Positions 8,517-62,105 are shown, numbered from the stretch's first letter. The stretch is DNA of 64,000 nt from Stappia sp. (GCF_048268045.1 NZ_JBLWWG010000010.1:47288-111287), one strand, 5' to 3'. Notes: generated from the letters alone by a model not told the origin. Numbers and translations: made by a program.

Positions 8517-9949
8517 GCGCCCGCGCCCGCTTCCGCCTCTGGCCGCGCTCGCTGGCCGGCCAGCTTATCGCATTGCTGCTGATCGCCGTCGTCGGCGCGC
8601 AGCTCATCACCCTCTGGCTCTTCACCGACGAGCGCCGCGTCGCGCTGGTGGACCTTGCCCGCAACGTCATCCTGTCGCGCACGGGCTCGCTCGTGCGCTG
8701 GATCGACGCCTCGCCTCCCGACATGCACGACGACATTCTCGGGGCCGTGTCGAGCCCCTTCCTGCGGTTCTGGGTTGCCAGCGATCCGGCGCTTGCCCGC
8801 AGCGGTGATCGCCAAACCGACACGCGGCTGGCCGAAATGCTGAGCGAGGAAATCGGCGACGGGCGCGAGGTGAGGATCGACGTGGTGCGACGCCCGCCGA
8901 TGCCCCCGAAGGGCATGTACCGGATCGGTGAGTCCGATGATGACGATGTTGACAGGGACGCACCGAAAAAGAGCGGAAAGCGCCATCACCGCTGGAAGGA
9001 CGCGCCGACCTTGCTCACACTGTCGGTGTCGCTTTCCGACGGGCGCTGGCTCAATGGTGTCAGCCGCTTCCGCGTGCCCCGCAACACACTGACGCCGCTT
9101 CTCGTAACCGCCGGCCTGATGGCCGCGGCCATCGTTCTCGTCATCGCCTTCACCGTGCGCCGGCTGACGCGCCCCTTGCGCGACCTCTCGGCGGCTGCAG
9201 AGCGACTCGGGCGGGGGGAGGACGTCGATCCGCTCGTCGAACGCGGCCCCTCGGAAGTTCGCGGGACGATCCACGCGTTCAACGTCATGCAGGACCGGTT
9301 GACCCGTTTCGTGCGCGACCGCACCCGCATGCTTGGCGCGATCAGCCACGACCTCAGGACCCCGATCACCTCCTTGCGCATCCGCGCCGAGTTCATCGAC
9401 GACGACGAGAACCGCGAGAAGATGATCGAAACACTCGACGAGATGCAACGCATGGTCGAGGCAACGCTTGCGCTTGCACGCGATGAAGCATCGCGCGAGG
9501 ATGTCGCCCGCATCGACCTCGGCGAATTCCTGGAGGCCATCGTCGAGGACTACCGCGACATCGGACAGACGGTTTCCTTCGAAAAGCCGGGCCGACGCAT
9601 CGTTTCGTCCTTCCGCCCCCTTAGCCTCAAGCGCGCCCTGCGCAATCTTGTCGAGAACGCCCTGCGCTACGGCAAGGGGACTGAAATCAAGCTGGAGGCA
9701 ACCGCCGACACCCTCGCCATCACAGTCCTCGACAATGGCCCCGGCATCCCGGAAGATCGGCTTCAGGACGTGTTTGAACCCTTTGTCCGGCTGGAGGAAT
9801 CCCGTTCGGAAGAAACGGGAGGGATCGGGCTTGGCCTGTCGATCACACGCTCCATCGTGCATGCACACGGCGGCACGCTGGTGTTGTCCAACAGGCCGGA
9901 GGGTGGGCTCTCGGCGCGCATCGTCCTGCCGATGGGCCGGACGGCGTGA
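8513..9949 (+). CDS. EnvZ/CpxA-like sensor histidine kinase (2 TM, HAMP, HisKA, HATPase)
   Basis: ATGA overlap with the regulator; ISHDLRTP H-box; NLVENALRYG, DNGPGI and GGIGLGL motifs. Confidence 0.95.
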   Translation: MSARARFRLWPRSLAGQLIALLLIAVVGAQLITLWLFTDERRVALVDLARNVILSRTGSLVRWIDASPPDMHDDILGAVSSPFLRFWVASDPALARSGDRQTDTRLAEMLSEEIGDGREVRIDVVRRPPMPPKGMYRIGESDDDDVDRDAPKKSGKRHHRWKDAPTLLTLSVSLSDGRWLNGVSRFRVPRNTLTPLLVTAGLMAAAIVLVIAFTVRRLTRPLRDLSAAAERLGRGEDVDPLVERGPSEVRGTIHAFNVMQDRLTRFVRDRTRMLGAISHDLRTPITSLRIRAEFIDDDENREKMIETLDEMQRMVEATLALARDEASREDVARIDLGEFLEAIVEDYRDIGQTVSFEKPGRRIVSSFRPLSLKRALRNLVENALRYGKGTEIKLEATADTLAITVLDNGPGIPEDRLQDVFEPFVRLEESRSEETGGIGLGLSITRSIVHAHGGTLVLSNRPEGGLSARIVLPMGRTA

Positions 9950-10171
9950 TCCAGGCGCTGCGAGCGTCCGGCTCAAGACTCCCCTGGCGAGGGACACCGC
10001 ACGCACCATGTAAACGCGGAAGCGGATGGCGGCACCCGGCAACGACCGGACAGGCGGACGCGGATATGTCGTGAGCGAGTTCCCGCCAAGGCTTGCATTC
10101 ATTTCCGAGAAAATCCAGAAATTCTGGCAAGATACGATTCGTCGACACGCTTATCGGGTGGGAGAGAGAAG

Positions 10172-10630
10172 ATGGCAGAGCCCCCACAGGGCAGCAACTT
10201 CGGTCCGTTCATTCAGATGGTTCTCGAACGCAACCGCACATCACCCGACGAGCCGCTTCGACCGCCGCTTTCCAAGGAGAATTCCCGCCGCCGATCCGAG
10301 GGCGAAAAGCCTGAACGGCGCAGTGCGCCGCGTGCAAGGGGCGAAGCCGATGTCATGGTCCTGACCATGCGCGGCCCGGTCGCCGGCACGCTTGTCGACC
10401 TGAGCCTGACGGGTTGCAGCATCGAGGCCGACGAGCTTCCGAAACTCGCCATCAACGCCAGGATCGCGATCCTGGCGCACGGGCTCGAGATGCGCGCCGA
10501 GCGGCGCTGGGTGCACGGCGCAAGGTCGGGCTGGCGCTTCGTCTACAGCGAAACGGAACAGACCCGGCTCTCCGCCCTCCTGCCGCGACGCGCCGAGCGC
10601 TTCCCGCACCCCTTCACAACCCGCGCCTGA
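10172..10630 (+). CDS. PilZ-domain protein
   Basis: RRSAPR (RxxxR) followed by DLSLTG (DxSxxG); SD-like GGAGAGAG upstream. Confidence 0.75.
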   Translation: MAEPPQGSNFGPFIQMVLERNRTSPDEPLRPPLSKENSRRRSEGEKPERRSAPRARGEADVMVLTMRGPVAGTLVDLSLTGCSIEADELPKLAINARIAILAHGLEMRAERRWVHGARSGWRFVYSETEQTRLSALLPRRAERFPHPFTTRA

Positions 10631-10667
10631 GCGCGGGCGGCAGGACCAGAGGCGGAAAGGTCGAAAG

Positions 10668-12842
10668 TCAGCCGCGCGCGGATGCCTTCACCTCGAGACG
10701 ACGGGCGTGCAGGATCGGCTCGGTGTAGCCCGACGGCTGGCTCGTGCCTTTGAACACCAGATCGCAGGCCGCCTTGAAGGCAATGGAGGCGTCATAGTCC
10801 TTCGCCATCGGCCGATAGAGCGGGTCTCCGGCGTTCTGGCCGTCGACGACGGCCGCCATGCGCTTCATCGTTTCCATGACCTGCGCCTGAGTGCAAACAC
10901 CGTGACGCAGCCAGTTGGCGATGTGCTGCGAGGAAATGCGCAGCGTCGCCCTGTCCTCCATCAGTCCGATATCGTTGATGTCCGGCACCTTGGAACAGCC
11001 GACGCCCTGGTCGACCCAGCGCACCACGTAGCCGAGGATGCCCTGGGCGTTGTTGTCGAGCTCGGCCTGGATCTCTTCCGCCGTCCAGTTCGGCCGCTCA
11101 GCGACCGGGATCGAGAGAATGTCGTCGAGGCTGGCGCGACCGCGCGTGGCCAGCTCCTTCTGCCGGGCGGCGACATCGACCAGATGATAGTGCAGCGCAT
11201 GAAGGGTCGCGGCGGTCGGCGACGGCACCCAGGCGGTGGTGGCGCCCGCCTTCGGATGGCCGATCTTCTGCTCCAGCATCGCCTGCATCAGATCGGGCAT
11301 GGCCCACATGCCCTTGCCGATCTGGGCGTGCCCCGGCAGGCCGCACTCGAGGCCCACGTCCACATTCGAGTTTTCATAGGCCTGGATCCACGCAGCCGAC
11401 TTCATGTCGCCCTTGCGAATCATCGGGCCAGCTTCCATCGACGTGTGCATCTCGTCGCCGGTGCGGTCGAGGAAGCCGGTGTTGATGAAGCAGACGCGGG
11501 CGGATGCAGCGCGGATGCACTCCTTGAGGTTGACCGTGGTGCGGCGCTCCTCGTCCATGATGCCCATCTTGAGCGTGTTGGCGGCAAGGCCCAGCACCTT
11601 CTCGACGCGGGAGAACAGCGTCTGCGCGAAGGCGACCTCCTCCGGCCCGTGCATCTTCGGCTTGACGATGTAGAGCGAGCCCGCGCGCGAGTTGGCGCGC
11701 AGGCCGCCGCCATTGGCGCCACCGCTGCCGATGTCGTGCTTGGCGATCAGCGCCGTCATCATGGCATCGAGAATGCCCTCTGGGATCTCCCCGCCATCCT
11801 CGTCGAGAACCGCCGGCGTCGTCATCAGGTGACCGACGTTACGCACAAGCATCAGCGAACGGCCGTGGAGGGTGAGCGCGCCGCCTTGCGGGGTGGTGTA
11901 GGTTCGATCCCCCTCCATGCGCCGGGTGACCGTCTTGCCGCCCTTCTCGAAACTGGCGGACAGATCGCCCTTCAGCAGGCCGAGCCAGTTGCGATAGGCG
12001 ACGACCTTGTCCTCGGCATCAACCGCGGCGACGGAATCCTCGCAGTCCATGATGGTGGAGACGGCCGCCTCCAGCACCACGTCGGCGATGCCGGCGGCAT
12101 CCGCCTTGCCGATCGGGCTCGTGCGGTCGACCACGATCTCCAGGTGAAGGCCGTTCTTGGTGAGGAGCACCGCGTCGGGGGCGGCGGCATCGCCGCGATA
12201 GCCGGCGAACTGGCCCGCGTCCTTCAACGTCATCTCGCCGCCAGAGGAAGATGCGACCACAAGAGTGCCGTCACGCACGCAAAGCCCGGCGGCCTCCGCC
12301 CAGGAGCCGGACAGTGGGGCGCGCGCGTCGAGAACCTGGCGCGCATAGGCCACCACCTCTGCGCCGCGCGCGGCGTCATAGCCGCCCGGCTTCGGCAGGC
12401 TGCCCATGGCATCCGTGCCGTAGAGCGCATCATAGAGCGAGCCCCAGCGCGCATTCGCCGCATTGAGCGCGTAGCGGGCGTTGGTGATCGGAACGACGAG
12501 CTGCGGGCCTGCGAGCGTGGAGATTTCCGGGTCGACATCGGCGGTCGTCACGGCGAAGTCGCCGCCCTCTTCCACGAGATAACCAATCTCGCGCAGGAAC
12601 GCGGTGTAGGCCTTTAGGTCGACAGGACCGGGATGCGCACGGTGCCAGTCGTCGATCTTCGCCTGAAGCTCGTCGCGGCGCGCAAGAAGCTCGCGGTTCA
12701 CCGGTGCGAGGTCGCGCAGAATGTCCGCGAACCCGGACCAGAAGTCACCGGCTGCGACGCCGGTTCCCGGCAGTGCCTCCTTCTCGACGAAGTCGCGCAA
12801 TTCGGGGGCAATCTTCAGGCCGGCGATTTCGATGCGATCCAT
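10668..12842 (-). CDS. glcB: Malate synthase G
   Basis: [40 protein letters not shown] and [12 protein letters not shown] motifs; ~724 aa. Confidence 0.97.
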
Positions 12843-58549: not shown

Positions 58550-59125
58550 ATGACGCCGACCGGAAAGACGCTTGCCCCCCTCGCGACAGCGGTCGCCCTG
58601 CTCGCGCTCACCGCCGCAATCCTGCTTGCCATGGGTCGCGTGCCGATTTGCACCTGCGGGGAGGTCAAGTTGTGGACGGGAGATGTCACTTCCTCGGACA
58701 ACTCCCAGCACATCTCGGACTGGTACACCTTCTCCCACATCATCCACGGCATGCTGTTCTACGGCCTCTTCCATCTGGCAACGCCGCGCCTTTCCATGGG
58801 ATGGCGGGCGGTCGGCTCCATCGTCATCGAAGCCGCTTGGGAAATCCTCGAGAACAGCCCCTGGATCATCGACCGCTACCGCGAGGCGACCATTGCGGTC
58901 GGCTACACCGGCGACAGTGTTCTCAACTCCGTGTTCGACGTCATCTGGATGCTGGTCGGGTTCTGGCTGGCGCTGCGCCTGCCTGTGTGGCTGACCGTCG
59001 TGCTGGCGCTCGCCATGGAAATTGTCGTCGCCGCGGTCATTCGCGACAATCTCACCCTCAATATCATCATGCTCGTCTGGCCGCTCGACGCGATCCGGGA
59101 CTGGCAGTCGGCCGCAGGTATCTGA
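58550..59125 (+). CDS. DUF2585 (UPF0314) membrane protein
   Basis: [28 protein letters not shown]...II.RYR, GDSVLNS and IRDNLTLN motifs. Confidence 0.93.
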
Positions 59126-59224
59126 GCAGCACCGGACGCTCAGCCCCGCGCCTCGCCGCGTGTCTTGACACGTCGGAGCGCCCCGGCGACTGTCCGCCCC
59201 TCTTCAACAGGCGGATCTGTCTCG

Positions 59225-60253
59225 ATGTCCCTGCTCGTCCCTCTATCCCTTGCCGCGATCTGCGGTGGGGCCGCGACTGCCATCGCCGCTCATGATTTCT
59301 TCGAGGGGGAGACGCTGGTTGCCGACATGATCCGCGCCGCGCGCCTCGCGCGCGCGGACCTTGGCGATCTCGACCGCAAGGTGGCGGCGCGCGCGAAGAG
59401 CCCGCTCGTCATGACGCTGACAACGATCCCGAGCCGCATCGGCCTTCTCGACATGACGCTGAAGAGCTTGCTCGACCAATCGCTGGCACCGGCCGAAATC
59501 CGCCTCAACGTGCCTCATCATTCCCGCCGCGAGGATTGCGCCTACGAGATCCCCTCATGGCTCGAGAAACTCGAAACGGTCAAGATCGTACGCTGCGATG
59601 ACTCCGGCCCGGCGACAAAGCTCTTTCCGACCCTCCCCTGCGTTGAAGCCGACGCCCCCGTCGTCGTGGTCGACGACGACCGCATCTATCCGCCACGCTT
59701 CCTCGAAACGCTCGCGGCGGCGGCCGACGCGGATCCTGACAGCGCCTTCGGCCTGTCGGGCTGGGTGGTACCGGAGGACTTTATCGACCGGCCAACGACG
59801 ATCCGCAGCAATCTCTACCTGCAACCGCCAGCTCCGGTGCGCGCGCGCCGCCTGCGCAAGCCCTTCGAGATCGACATCCTCCAAGGGTTCTCAGGCTATC
59901 TGGTGCGTCCGCGCTTCTTCCCGGAACTTCAGGCGATGCTCGCGCATGAGGGTGCTCCGCGCGAGGCGTTCTTCGTCGACGATGTATGGATTTCGGGCTT
60001 CTGCCGCGCCCGCAAGTTCGTGGTTCCGGCGAAGCGCGCCGGCTTCCAGCAGTGGAGCCGGCGGGAACACTACCGCGCGTCGAGCCTCGGCCTCGTCAAC
60101 AGGGGCGAGGGAACGCCGGAAAGCCGCAACAACACCATCGTCATCCGCCATCTGGCAGATCGCTGGACAGTCGGAGGTCATGCTGCGGCCTCCCGTCGAG
60201 CGGGCGCACCTGGGCAACAAGCTCCGGCAGAAGCCGGGCAAGCGCGTCCGTAA
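59225..60253 (+). CDS. GT-A-fold (GT2-like) glycosyltransferase with N-terminal anchor
   Basis: TLTTIPSRI, SLLDQ, GPATKL, VVDDD (DxD) and FFVDDVWISG motifs. Confidence 0.75.
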   Translation: MSLLVPLSLAAICGGAATAIAAHDFFEGETLVADMIRAARLARADLGDLDRKVAARAKSPLVMTLTTIPSRIGLLDMTLKSLLDQSLAPAEIRLNVPHHSRREDCAYEIPSWLEKLETVKIVRCDDSGPATKLFPTLPCVEADAPVVVVDDDRIYPPRFLETLAAAADADPDSAFGLSGWVVPEDFIDRPTTIRSNLYLQPPAPVRARRLRKPFEIDILQGFSGYLVRPRFFPELQAMLAHEGAPREAFFVDDVWISGFCRARKFVVPAKRAGFQQWSRREHYRASSLGLVNRGEGTPESRNNTIVIRHLADRWTVGGHAAASRRAGAPGQQAPAEAGQARP

Positions 60254-62012
60254 TCGCGCGTTCGCCGGACAGGAAACGCTTCGCCGCAGGGTCCAGCCCA
60301 CTCAGCCTGCGCCCAAGCCAGGGAATGCCCGAGACGAATCCCAGCCGGGTGCGAAGATCGAAGGCGACACAATCGCCCGCCATCGAGACGTGATGCGGTG
60401 AAGTCAGTCGCGCGAATTCCGCAAGCGGGTGTTCATCGCCGACAGGTGTTTCCAGATAGGCCCCGTCGGCGTCGAGGCCGATGCGCCGCACCTCCACCGC
60501 CTGGCCGTAGTAGCTCCGGTTGTTCTGCATGACCCGCATGGGTCCCTCCGCGTCGGCGAAGACATCCCCGGCGCCCCGGCCGAGCCCGTGCGAGCCGTCG
60601 GCGAAGATCCCCTTTGCATTGACCGGATCGGCGACAAGACCGCCCGTCGCCGGATCGTCCATATGGTAGACTGCAAGCGTACGTGCGCCATCTGCTCCTT
60701 CCGGCTTCTCGCACAGGACAAGGCGCCAGCCGCCGCCCTCCTTGAAGATCACCGCATCCACCGCATTCGTGCTCCCCTTCATCCGGCGCACGCGGCGCCA
60801 TTTGTCGGGAAACCGCTCGCACCGGTAAAGATCGAGCGCGCCCATGGCGCAGGTCTCCGGCAACATGTGGAGCACGCCACCGACCTCGAACAGGAAGGGA
60901 TAGGACGCATGTTCGCGGATCGGCAGCACCGGCACCGGCGGGCCCGGCTTCAACGCCTCGTCCAGTTCCATGGCAACCAGACGTCCGCGTTGCTCAAGAT
61001 ACTCGAATTCCTCGACGAAGAGCCATAGCCGCCCATCGATCCGGCGCAGGAACGGGTCCGCGTAATAGCTGAATGCAGGTGCGGAAACAGCCGTTGGCCG
61101 GATGTCGCCGGAGCGCATGACGAAAACCTGAAAATGCTCCTTGGGAAGGCGATGCAGGCCGAGCAAACGCCGGCGATAAAAGTCCTGCCAGCGCAGGTTG
61201 GCCCGATCTCCCGCCTTGTAGAGCCGATGCCAGAGGCGTTGCAGCGGGTCGGTCCAGGATGGACGGTTCGGGGTGATCTTGTTGCGCGTGCTCGCCCAGC
61301 GTATCGGTCGGGGCGAGGAAATGTCGACGTCGTCGCCATTGAGAACCAGATCGCCCGCGGCCTCTGCCCTCAAGAGCAGGATGGTCAGCACCGTCTGGTC
61401 GGCGTTGTGGCGGGGCGTCGCCGGGCGGAAGGCAAGCGGATCACCTGCAAGCCGGGCCCAGTCCTCGACAAGCCGTCGCACCGCTGCCCGCTCCAGATCG
61501 AACCCCAGCAGCCCGCCGATCCGGATCTGCCGGTCGAGGAACTCCGGCTCCACCCGCAGATAGGTCAGAACCTCCGGCAGGCAGCGCTCGCTCAGGTTCG
61601 CCTGCCCCTTCAGCGTGTAGCTGCCATTTTGGGCCAGAACCGACAGTGGCTCGGACAGATCCGCACGAAGGAGCGTCGCGCTGTCGAACCAGAAGAGGTG
61701 CCCGCCAAAACGCTCCGCCGCGTCGGCAATGGCCAGAGGCTTCCAGGCATAGGTGCCCGCCGCAACCGCCACATGCGGCGGGTGGTCGGCAAACGGGAAA
61801 CGAATGACCTCGGCGAAGGGGAAGCGGGCCGCGATCAAGGCGCGGTCTTCATTCGAGAGGCCAAGATCGTAAACGAGGACGCGGGCGCTCTCGCACACAC
61901 GGCACCGCTTCAGGTTCGTCAGAAGCTGAAAGAGCGTGCGGGCGAAACGCGCGTCCGAGCCGGTCGCTATCGTGCAATTCGTCCCGGCACCGGTCCTGCC
62001 TGTGCTTGTCAT
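60141..62012 (-). CDS. Two-domain protein: DUF1647-like GT module + GINT1-N-like beta-propeller (glycoside hydrolase-like)
   Basis: N-terminal YDLGL, RFPFADHPPHV, YAWKP, WFDSA and RHNADQ motifs; C-terminal YADPFL..LFVEEF, HASYPFLF, MLPET and LYR...FPDKW motifs. Confidence 0.65.
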   Translation of the reverse strand: MTSTGRTGAGTNCTIATGSDARFARTLFQLLTNLKRCRVCESARVLVYDLGLSNEDRALIAARFPFAEVIRFPFADHPPHVAVAAGTYAWKPLAIADAAERFGGHLFWFDSATLLRADLSEPLSVLAQNGSYTLKGQANLSERCLPEVLTYLRVEPEFLDRQIRIGGLLGFDLERAAVRRLVEDWARLAGDPLAFRPATPRHNADQTVLTILLLRAEAAGDLVLNGDDVDISSPRPIRWASTRNKITPNRPSWTDPLQRLWHRLYKAGDRANLRWQDFYRRRLLGLHRLPKEHFQVFVMRSGDIRPTAVSAPAFSYYADPFLRRIDGRLWLFVEEFEYLEQRGRLVAMELDEALKPGPPVPVLPIREHASYPFLFEVGGVLHMLPETCAMGALDLYRCERFPDKWRRVRRMKGSTNAVDAVIFKEGGGWRLVLCEKPEGADGARTLAVYHMDDPATGGLVADPVNAKGIFADGSHGLGRGAGDVFADAEGPMRVMQNNRSYYGQAVEVRRIGLDADGAYLETPVGDEHPLAEFARLTSPHHVSMAGDCVAFDLRTRLGFVSGIPWLGRRLSGLDPAAKRFLSGERAITDALARLLPELVAQVRPLDGRPQHDLRLSSDLPDGG

Positions 62013-62105
62013 GTTCCGCGCTACCCGGCCCAATTTCACTTGAGGCCTTTGACCACGCCGGACAAGGCCAAGGCAAGGAAAAGGGGCAAGGCGACGCCAG
62101 TCCTG

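Follow-up and report, generated by a model that had tools for sequence, protein, structure and literature searches.

Two convergent, overlapping glycosyltransferase-type genes of Stappia as putative accessories of an inositol-lipid pathway

To which pathway does a pair of glycosyltransferase-type genes belong when it stands, tail to tail and overlapping, among housekeeping genes? The two genes in question, here called A and B, lie at 59225-62012 of a 64,000-nucleotide stretch of Stappia sp. DNA (NZ_JBLWWG010000010.1:47288-111287, on contig C10 of genome G000), the whole of which is referred to as the window. An earlier note, made from the sequence of the window, had taken the pair for a two-gene system modifying a glycolipid or glycoconjugate, and both open reading frames, every motif that it had named in A and B and the tail-to-tail overlap of 113 bp were recovered in the present analysis (Table 1). 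The results point, with moderate confidence, to A and B as accessory glycosyltransferases that would add further sugars to the head group of an inositol phospholipid.

The distribution of the two genes was examined in 301 genomes of the order, evenly drawn, with a threshold of E ≤ 1e-20 for A-like genes. An A-like gene was present in 17 genomes of 6 genera, all 17 of which carried the gene for myo-inositol-phosphate synthase (MIPS), compared with 54 of the 301 overall. MIPS was located on the same contig, less than 25 kb from the A-like gene, in 13 of the 13 genomes from outside Stappia. The N-terminal domain of B (E below 1e-50) was detected in nine genomes, and MIPS was again present in every one of them (9/9). 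The genomes sampled are related, and these counts are descriptive and carry no statistical test.

The genes surrounding the orthologues were of a recurrent kind. In the metagenome cluster of the B homologue P0030, genes for MIPS, a short-chain dehydrogenase/reductase (SDR), a CdsA-like protein, a cytidine diphosphate (CDP)-alcohol phosphatidyltransferase, PgpA, DUF4833, FGGY, Stealth, a glycosyltransferase (GT) of family GT4 and an MsbA-like exporter were found, with an A homologue at the edge of the cluster. A second metagenome B homologue, P0024, was located 2.7 kb from MIPS amid GT4, GT32 and GT2 genes. The Aestuariivirga A homologue P0175 occupied the same cluster type together with a B homologue, LptF/G and Frag1; P0138, also an A homologue, was accompanied by an alpha-oxoamine synthase, an SDR, a CdsA-like gene, Frag1, MIPS, GT4, two CDP-alcohol transferases and FGGY, and P0167 adjoined FGGY, a CDP-alcohol transferase and Frag1. 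When the genes of the inositol cluster of Stappia itself were used as tblastn queries, orthologues (approximately 30-65% identical) were found clustered with A and B in L021, L035, L036, G105 (L056) and G130 (L054), and in G130 A stands directly beside an N-domain-only B homologue on the same strand. B homologues were 1.5-3 kb from MIPS in L021, L024, G105, G187 and G279. Wzx, Wzy, Wzz, polyprenyl-phosphate transferase and sugar-nucleotide genes were absent from the clusters seen, as was an AUR1/PAP2-type inositol phosphorylceramide (IPC) synthase from the alphaproteobacterial ones. Part of these linkage data comes from metagenome contigs of unassigned taxonomy.

Two of these loci differ in the genes accompanying the B homologue. 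In L021 it is followed by two tandem paralogous proteins of about 270 aa without a Pfam match (9698-11367), and the matching place in L024 is occupied by a Gly_transf_sug (GT32) gene (2182-2988). GT32 includes the fungal inositol-phosphoceramide mannosyltransferases.

Stappia has its own cluster of this type, outside the window, on contig C6 (approximately 281000-300000; loci L034 and L045), comprising about 17 genes. It begins with aminoethylphosphonate genes, namely a fusion of phosphoenolpyruvate mutase and nucleoside triphosphate (NTP) transferase (cytidylyltransferase), a phosphonopyruvate-decarboxylase-like thiamine pyrophosphate enzyme and an aminotransferase, and continues with an alpha-oxoamine synthase whose best match in the PDB is serine palmitoyltransferase. 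DUF4833, MIPS, an SDR, a CdsA-like gene and PgpA follow, then two LptF/G-like permease genes, an NTP transferase, a CDP-alcohol transferase, GT4 and the sugar-phosphate transferase Stealth, and finally an FGGY kinase and a second CDP-alcohol transferase (CDPOH_2) closest to archaetidylinositol-phosphate and phosphatidylinositol phosphate (PIP) synthases. From this gene content, the product may be an inositol glycolipid that is decorated with phosphonate and exported by Lpt-like proteins of its own.

The Frag1 gene of Stappia is located on contig C19 (26960-27634, L053) and not in the C6 cluster. Elsewhere this membrane protein (PF10277) recurs in or beside the clusters (L035 12221-13006, L036 4180-4911, L037 6889-7671, L055 and L057), and the same search found it in none of 14 control genomes. 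Its family includes PGAP2 and the N-domain of Cwh43, eukaryotic proteins that remodel the lipid of glycosylphosphatidylinositol (GPI) anchors.

The sister genus g26 (G120) has a complete C6-type cluster with the same gene order, ending in Frag1, and has neither A nor B anywhere in its genome. Hence, the pair is accessory to the core pathway. The glycolipid role proposed earlier is strongly backed by the context of the orthologues, but the idea of a self-contained pair had to be abandoned, A and B being detached accessories of the inositol-lipid pathway on C6, which the sister genus possesses without them.

The AlphaFold model of protein A (pLDDT 91) shows a helix at the N-terminus (residues 4-27) and then a GT-A domain, and the best Foldseek matches in the PDB were KfiA of Escherichia coli K5 (5z8b, E 8e-10, TM 0.70) and the heparosan synthase PmHS2 (8vh7/8vh8, E 1e-9), which ranked above the GalNAc-T family. 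Furthermore, a profile of 32 A homologues matched residues 298-425 of PmHS2 (E 5e-5), a region that is its alpha-N-acetylglucosamine (GlcNAc)-transferase (GT45) half, with the IPSR and DDDxIYP motifs aligned. T66, P69 and R71, invariant among the 32 homologues, belong to the segment aligned with 'SIPSR' of PmHS2, and the DDD region is aligned with 'CDDDIIYP'. In the C-terminal motif DDVWISG, residues D252, D253 and W255 are invariant, and at least 90% of the homologues keep V254, I256 and S257. Since the fold comparison leads to KfiA and PmHS2 and the family profile to PmHS2, A is probably a distant GT45-like, retaining transferase of the N-acetylhexosamine (HexNAc) type. The positive-inside rule suggests that the catalytic domain is cytoplasmic at the inner membrane. 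The earlier description of the pair as eukaryote-like glycosyltransferases was right as to glycosyltransferase type and overstated as to eukaryote-like, the nearest structural relatives of A being the bacterial GT45 enzymes KfiA and PmHS2. The possibility that A is a GT64 enzyme, which would make A plus B a 'split GINT1', was not supported, as no GT64 match was obtained and the nearest relatives belong to GT45.

More distant A-like genes (about 40% identical) were present in 7 of 8 genomes of another family of the order (f23, genus g32), for example at G046:C1:216191-216799, and at G145:C68:42250-43068, 1.6-6 kb from MIPS, and some of the open frames have just 280-300 aa or so. Because these genes also lie near MIPS in a different family, the link of the GT45-like family with inositol genes reaches past the A orthologues.

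The AlphaFold model of B, built with 36 homologues, is one confident chain (pLDDT 92, pTM 0.88), with an alpha/beta part at about residues 11-250, a long helix at 252-288, an all-beta part at about 290-557 and a helical C-terminal extension. The N-half carries the motifs YDLGL, FPFADHPPHV, YAWKP, WFDS and HNADQ, and H80, D110, D230, R243, N244, D255 and K266 are invariant. PDB sequence searches with the single sequence and with a profile gave nothing meaningful, and the fold comparison alone was informative: Foldseek matched the N-domain (E about 1e-7) with the GT8 domain of WbbM (6u4b), glycogenin (1ll0), LgtC (1ss9/1g9r) and the related GT24 catalytic domain of UGGT. In the place of the DxD motif B has WFD110-S-A, in which D110 does not vary and the third position is taken by A, G or T; the canonical motif is not present, nor does the domain match Pfam Glyco_transf_8. 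The link to DUF1647 (PF07801) made in the earlier note received indirect support. The N-half of B itself has no Pfam match, DUF1647 included, even at E ≤ 10, but its homologue P0184, 40% identical over the whole length, matches DUF1647 with 52.3 bits (cut-off 25.7), P0227 with 26.1 bits, and 14 of the 36 aligned family members at E ≤ 0.01. Membership of B in DUF1647 is thus proposed by transitivity only.

The fusion of this domain to a propeller of the type found in plant GINT1, reported in the earlier note, is genuine. In a scan of 1.84 billion cluster representatives, 109 proteins matched B at E ≤ 1e-30, and the best 150 were inspected for their architecture. The propeller was near-full in 97 of them, comprising 38 full-length DUF1647 + propeller proteins, 33 stand-alone propellers and 26 with other N-domains; stand-alone B-type N-domains also occur. 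A frameshift artefact was rejected, given full-length two-domain homologues in 38 clusters at 50% identity and a model that forms one confident chain. Among the homologues, P0049 (969 aa; L026 10001-12910) combines a DUF1647-like N-domain, the propeller and a GT11 fucosyltransferase domain, and its neighbours are GT6, methyltransferase and MsbA-like genes. In P0240 the propeller is fused with a GT4 domain.

Pfam GINT1_N (PF24793) matches B at residues 315-524 (60441-61070) with 51 bits against a cut-off of 27, and all 36 aligned homologues also match it. The motifs YADPF, SYPFLF, PET and FPDKW lie in this half. The top Foldseek matches of the propeller (E about 1e-7) were glycoside hydrolases (GH) of families GH117 (4ak5, 5ta7, 3r4z) and GH43 (3k1u, 5jow, 6ms3). 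Over the 97 propellers, which represent three architectures, D319 (in ADPF), E334, H368, S370, E386, D419, R479, R493, Y502, E521 and H540 are conserved in at least 96%, and D552 in 94%. An Asp/Glu/His/Arg set invariant across three architectures favours a putative active site over mere binding or scaffold, with D319, D419, E386 and E521 as candidate catalytic acids.

The propeller might instead be a non-catalytic module, binding the acceptor or serving as a scaffold that places the transferase domain on its glycan, with no second enzyme in B. This is considered rather unlikely. Hydrolase activity is known for none of its members, G130 pairs a DUF1647 domain with A and has no propeller anywhere in its genome, and the module has fusion partners of no fewer than four unrelated transferase types (DUF1647, GT4 and GT11, and GT64 in plants; PMC9113257). 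Nevertheless, the conservation of the eleven polar residues is stricter than would be expected of a binding module, the conserved set resembles the Asp/Asp/Glu pattern of GH43-clan enzymes, and weak Pfam GH43 matches were obtained in 7 of the 36 family members.

B bears the NCBI label 'glucosamine inositolphosphorylceramide transferase family protein', although neither B nor A has a GT64 domain (Pfam Glyco_transf_64). B shares the N-terminal domain of GINT1 and lacks its catalytic domain; therefore the label rests on the propeller alone, and B is not a GINT1-family enzyme. GINT1_N was also considered as an inositol-specific module and rejected as such, given that genomes with propeller-only proteins carry MIPS in 13 of 62 cases, which is the background frequency (54/301). 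It is a widespread bacterial module, accompanied by several transferase types and untied to inositol. The proteins in those 62 of the 301 genomes have about 505-550 aa, with a C-terminal GINT1_N propeller and an N-region of about 300 aa (for example, G281:C1:4440229-4440843); in four that were scanned, the N-region matched no Pfam family, formyltransferase included.

From the directly established folds, motifs, conservation, linkage and co-occurrence, we infer the inositol-lipid acceptor, the donor sugars, the order of steps, the topology of A and the route of export in the following scheme. The C6-type cluster would make a lipid of the phosphatidylinositol (PI) type or the inositol-phosphoceramide type, by analogy with Bacteroides and mycobacteria. 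The PI type is proposed because the cluster has the triad of MIPS, PIP synthase and PgpA known from the PI route of B. thetaiotaomicron, together with a CdsA-like enzyme; the inositol-phosphoceramide type would result if the serine palmitoyltransferase-like and SDR genes supply a long-chain base. The likeliest enzyme for the first sugar on the inositol would be GT4, which belongs to the PimA/PIG-A/MshA class. After it, A and B would extend the head group on the cytoplasmic face. A, held in the inner membrane by its single N-terminal helix with the catalytic domain in the cytoplasm, would most likely add an alpha-linked HexNAc from a uridine diphosphate (UDP)-sugar onto the growing head group. 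B would be soluble, its DUF1647/GT8-like domain adding a further sugar and its GH43/GH117-like propeller handling glycans at a second site that is probably catalytic. Export of the product would fall to the MsbA-like and LptFG-like proteins.

Several observations weigh against this assignment. In Stappia the pair is located on contig C10 amid housekeeping genes and the inositol cluster on the separate contig C6, and what ties the pair to inositol lipids is its gene neighbourhood and co-occurrence in genomes that are related and not independent. The clusters also carry Stealth and LptFG-like genes, compatible with a phosphoglycan or a product related to lipopolysaccharide (LPS). As for A, it scores 15.2-15.3 bits with Pfam GT2 (Glycos_transf_2 and Glyco_tranf_2_3), under the cut-offs of 23.3 and 27, and its link to GT45 is distant (19% identity, E 5e-5). 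The N-domain of B has D-S-A instead of DxD, and its own sequence reaches neither a Pfam GT family nor DUF1647. Propeller-only proteins of about 515 aa in 62 further genomes accompany MIPS at no more than the background frequency, and P0049, the GT11-fused homologue of B, has no MIPS within 10 kb.

A more specific version of the scheme was considered improbable. According to it, Stappia and some other Alphaproteobacteria would make a glycolipid resembling the glycosyl inositol phosphorylceramides (GIPCs), built as sugar-sugar-inositol-phosphate-lipid, in which the N-domain of B would play the role of IPUT1 and A that of GINT1; the propeller would be a hitherto unrecognised catalytic domain that builds glycans at a hydrolase- or phosphorylase-like site, and B would be bifunctional.

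Little credence was likewise given to the view that A and B are ordinary surface-polysaccharide enzymes, acting on the LPS core, O-antigen, capsule or exopolysaccharide, and that the inositol genes are neighbours in a shared envelope island. The wide occurrence of GINT1_N propellers in bacterial glycan loci, also with GT4 and GT11 partners, would fit this view, as would the Stealth, MsbA-like and LptF/G-like genes, of a kind usual in systems for capsule and LPS, and the lack of a lipid gene next to the pair in Stappia. However, each of the 17 genomes in which an A-like gene was found (6 genera) has MIPS, and beyond Stappia the distance between the two genes never exceeded 25 kb. The constant partners are enzymes of phospholipid head groups (CDP-alcohol transferases, PgpA and the CdsA-like protein), and the Wzx, Wzy, Wzz, polyprenyl-phosphate transferase and sugar-nucleotide genes of polysaccharide systems were absent from the clusters seen.

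A soluble inositol conjugate as acceptor, either a glycosylated inositol-phosphate solute or a mycothiol-like GlcNAc-inositol, is very unlikely: the MIPS of Stappia has the mycothiol-type INO1 model as its best NCBIfam match (under its cut-off), a GT45-like HexNAc transferase could in principle produce a HexNAc-inositol compound and compatible solutes would be useful to a marine bacterium, but A has a putative membrane anchor, the clusters contain CdsA-like, PgpA-like and PIP-synthase-like genes, an MsbA-like ATP-binding-cassette exporter and LptFG-like permeases, and the genome has no PIG-L/MshB-type deacetylase. A search of G000 (96% complete) for PIG-L/LmbE-type de-N-acetylases (PF02585) gave no match, which speaks against a GPI-like route with de-N-acetylation (PIG-A followed by PIG-L).

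The preferred assignment, as accessory glycosyltransferases of an inositol phospholipid, concerns a pair that is itself conserved. A and B were present, adjacent and convergent, with overlapping ends, in 16 of 16 other Stappia genomes searched, so that their arrangement is more than chance, and they were absent from 8 other genera of the family searched. The co-occurrence of the two genes elsewhere, raised as a check in the earlier note, was thus observed in the genus as well as in the orthologue clusters. The gene order prfC-DUF2585-A-B is maintained wherever the retrieved Stappia flanks extend to those genes. The left flank (PitA-NUDIX-prfC-DUF2585) is common to two sister genera without the pair, and the right flank was not found in these within the approximately 7 kb searched. 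A protein of 608 aa, 63% identical to B (P0007), is filed in EukProt under the green alga Tetraselmis striata; as its nearest relatives come without exception from Stappia, the entry probably stems from bacterial DNA contaminating the algal assembly and not from a eukaryotic gene.

In the 15 Stappia loci examined, the stop codon of B is at a constant place relative to A (15/15), and the overlap measures 74 bp at 13 loci, 170 bp at one and 113 bp here, because this A is 13 codons longer. Homologues of B from outside Stappia stop near residue 557, about 65 residues short of Stappia B. The C-terminal residues of B, RPxDGRxPSSDRxDGG in most strains, are antisense to the conserved A segment VIRHLADRWTVGGH, and this segment is also conserved in A homologues without an overlapping partner. 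The overlap is real and stable, and is best explained by a lineage-specific extension of B reading into the constrained 3' end of A. It was also considered as a regulatory device; this was rejected, and the conservation of the tail was treated as a by-product of the constraint on A, since the tail is antisense to a conserved A segment, its last 11 residues are of low confidence and the extension is missing outside Stappia.

The open frame of A spans 59165..60253 (+), and its start was placed at the ATG at 59225, common to the homologues; that of B spans 60141..62039 (-), with the start taken at 62012, which gives the same length as that of a 98%-identical NCBI protein. The pair is flanked by housekeeping genes, a PitA-type phosphate transporter, a NUDIX gene, prfC and DUF2585 on one side and a flavin adenine dinucleotide oxidoreductase and leuC on the other, and the earlier statement that no Wzx/Wzy or sugar-nucleotide genes are adjacent holds. 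The DUF2585 membrane-protein gene (58571-59125, +) ends 99 bp upstream of A on the same strand, in a placement constant across Stappia, and its co-transcription with A is possible. The linkage is probably positional, since prfC-DUF2585 also occurs in sister genera without A and B.

Table 1. Coordinates in the window of genes A and B, their domains and motifs, and their overlap
Feature	Coordinates	Strand	Description	Evidence
Gene A	59225..60253	+	342 aa; predicted membrane-anchored GT-A glycosyltransferase, probably GT45-like	Open reading frame, homologue starts, AlphaFold, Foldseek, profile
A residues 4-27	59234..59305	+	N-terminal hydrophobic helix, putative membrane anchor; basic residues after	Sequence; helix in model
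A residues 66-71	59420..59437	+	TTIPSR motif, common to the GT45 domain of PmHS2	32-homologue alignment
A residues 150-152	59672..59680	+	DDD (DxD-type metal/nucleotide-sugar motif) in VVVDDDRIYP	Invariant, 32 homologues
A residues 252-258	59978..59998	+	DDVWISG	32-homologue alignment
Gene B	60141..62012	-	623 aa; predicted soluble two-domain protein with Stappia-specific C-terminal extension	Open reading frame, AlphaFold model, full-length homologues
B residues 11-285	61158..61982	-	GT-A domain, DUF1647 type, GT8-like fold	Foldseek, DUF1647 matches of homologues, invariant columns
B residues 290-560	60333..61145	-	Five-bladed beta-propeller	Pfam, Foldseek, conserved residues
B residues 561-623	60144..60332	-	C-terminal extension, Stappia only	Helices predicted to about residue 610; last 11 residues low-confidence (pLDDT)
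Convergent 3'-3' overlap of A and B	60141-60253		113 bp; last 37 codons of each gene plus stops	

Few bacteria are considered to have inositol lipids, and the glycosylated forms have been described chiefly in Actinobacteria, as the phosphatidylinositol mannosides (PIMs); GIPCs and GPI anchors are found in eukaryotes. The evidence points to a conserved alphaproteobacterial route to an inositol lipid that carries sugars and has dedicated Lpt-like genes for its export, and names two accessory enzymes, present in culturable Stappia strains and missing in a sister genus. It would provide a first functional context for three orphan families, namely DUF1647, elsewhere a nematode 'domain of unknown function', the GINT1_N propeller, for which neither plant GINT1 nor the many bacterial glycan loci that have it offer an explanation, and the GT45-like family with more than 500 members. 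It also reveals an annotation problem, the inositolphosphorylceramide transferase label being given to proteins without a GT64 catalytic domain. A literature search, with most subscription journals beyond its reach, found no paper describing this alphaproteobacterial system, in agreement with the earlier note, which knew of no description in bacteria, although B already bore that NCBI label. If the GIPC-like version were true, a function and a bacterial origin would follow for the N-terminal domain of plant GINT1.

The known systems closest to the pair are of several kinds. The plant GIPC enzymes act on the same predicted substrate class, a glycosylated inositol-phosphate lipid, and the N-domain of B is GT8-like, as is IPUT1, an enzyme of GT8. 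B also carries the GINT1_N propeller (PF24793, above cut-off), as does plant GINT1. The latter, a HexNAc transferase of GT64 with about double the length of GMT1, acts on glucuronic acid (GlcA)-IPC, and A likewise resembles retaining alpha-HexNAc transferases that act on GlcA (PMC9113257). Unlike GINT1, however, B is without a GT64 domain, the relationship of A is with bacterial GT45 and not with GT64, and the Stappia propeller sits on the GT8-like enzyme and not on the HexNAc-transferase-like one. Moreover, the plant enzymes are Golgi proteins, whereas A and B are predicted cytoplasmic proteins of bacteria. The parallel with IPUT1 and GINT1 is drawn between fold classes, as an analogy, and not as proof that the functions are homologous.

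KfiA of E. coli K5 and the C-terminal domain of Pasteurella multocida PmHS2, which A matches best in structure, are alpha-1,4-GlcNAc transferases of heparosan in CAZy family GT45. In addition to the low identity and the shared PmHS2 motifs mentioned above, A differs from them by its N-terminal anchor and a conserved C-terminal region, DDVWISG...RW.VGG, and it is found in inositol-lipid clusters and not in heparosan capsule loci. The N-domain of B shares the W.DS and H..DQ motifs with DUF1647 proteins, mostly uncharacterised nematode proteins of the Golgi type, and to our knowledge no member has a known function. What distinguishes the bacterial members is a propeller and a GT45-like enzyme as fusion or pairing partners. 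In PMC7614267, DUF1647 is listed solely as a domain in 'glycoclusters' of Caenorhabditis elegans.

The mycobacterial PIM pathway (PgsA1 and the GT4 enzymes PimA/PimB) also makes PI via PIP and then glycosylates the inositol at the cytoplasmic face with soluble or peripheral nucleotide-sugar transferases. It has no counterpart of the GT-A enzymes A and B, and Stappia is instead a diderm alphaproteobacterium whose cluster has Lpt-like export genes. In B. thetaiotaomicron, BT_1522-BT_1526 constitute an experimentally proven PI route, with MIPS, a PIP synthase and a PgpA-like PIP phosphatase (Heaver et al. 2022, PMC9246714). The same core of MIPS, CDP-alcohol phosphatidyltransferase and PgpA-like protein is present in C6 and its alphaproteobacterial counterparts. 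The Bacteroides cluster contains no glycosyltransferases, and its products are unglycosylated PI and PI-dihydroceramide (PMC9246714). In contrast, the alphaproteobacterial clusters add to this core GT4, Stealth, FGGY, a second CDP-alcohol transferase, LptFG-like proteins and Frag1 and, in some lineages, A and B.

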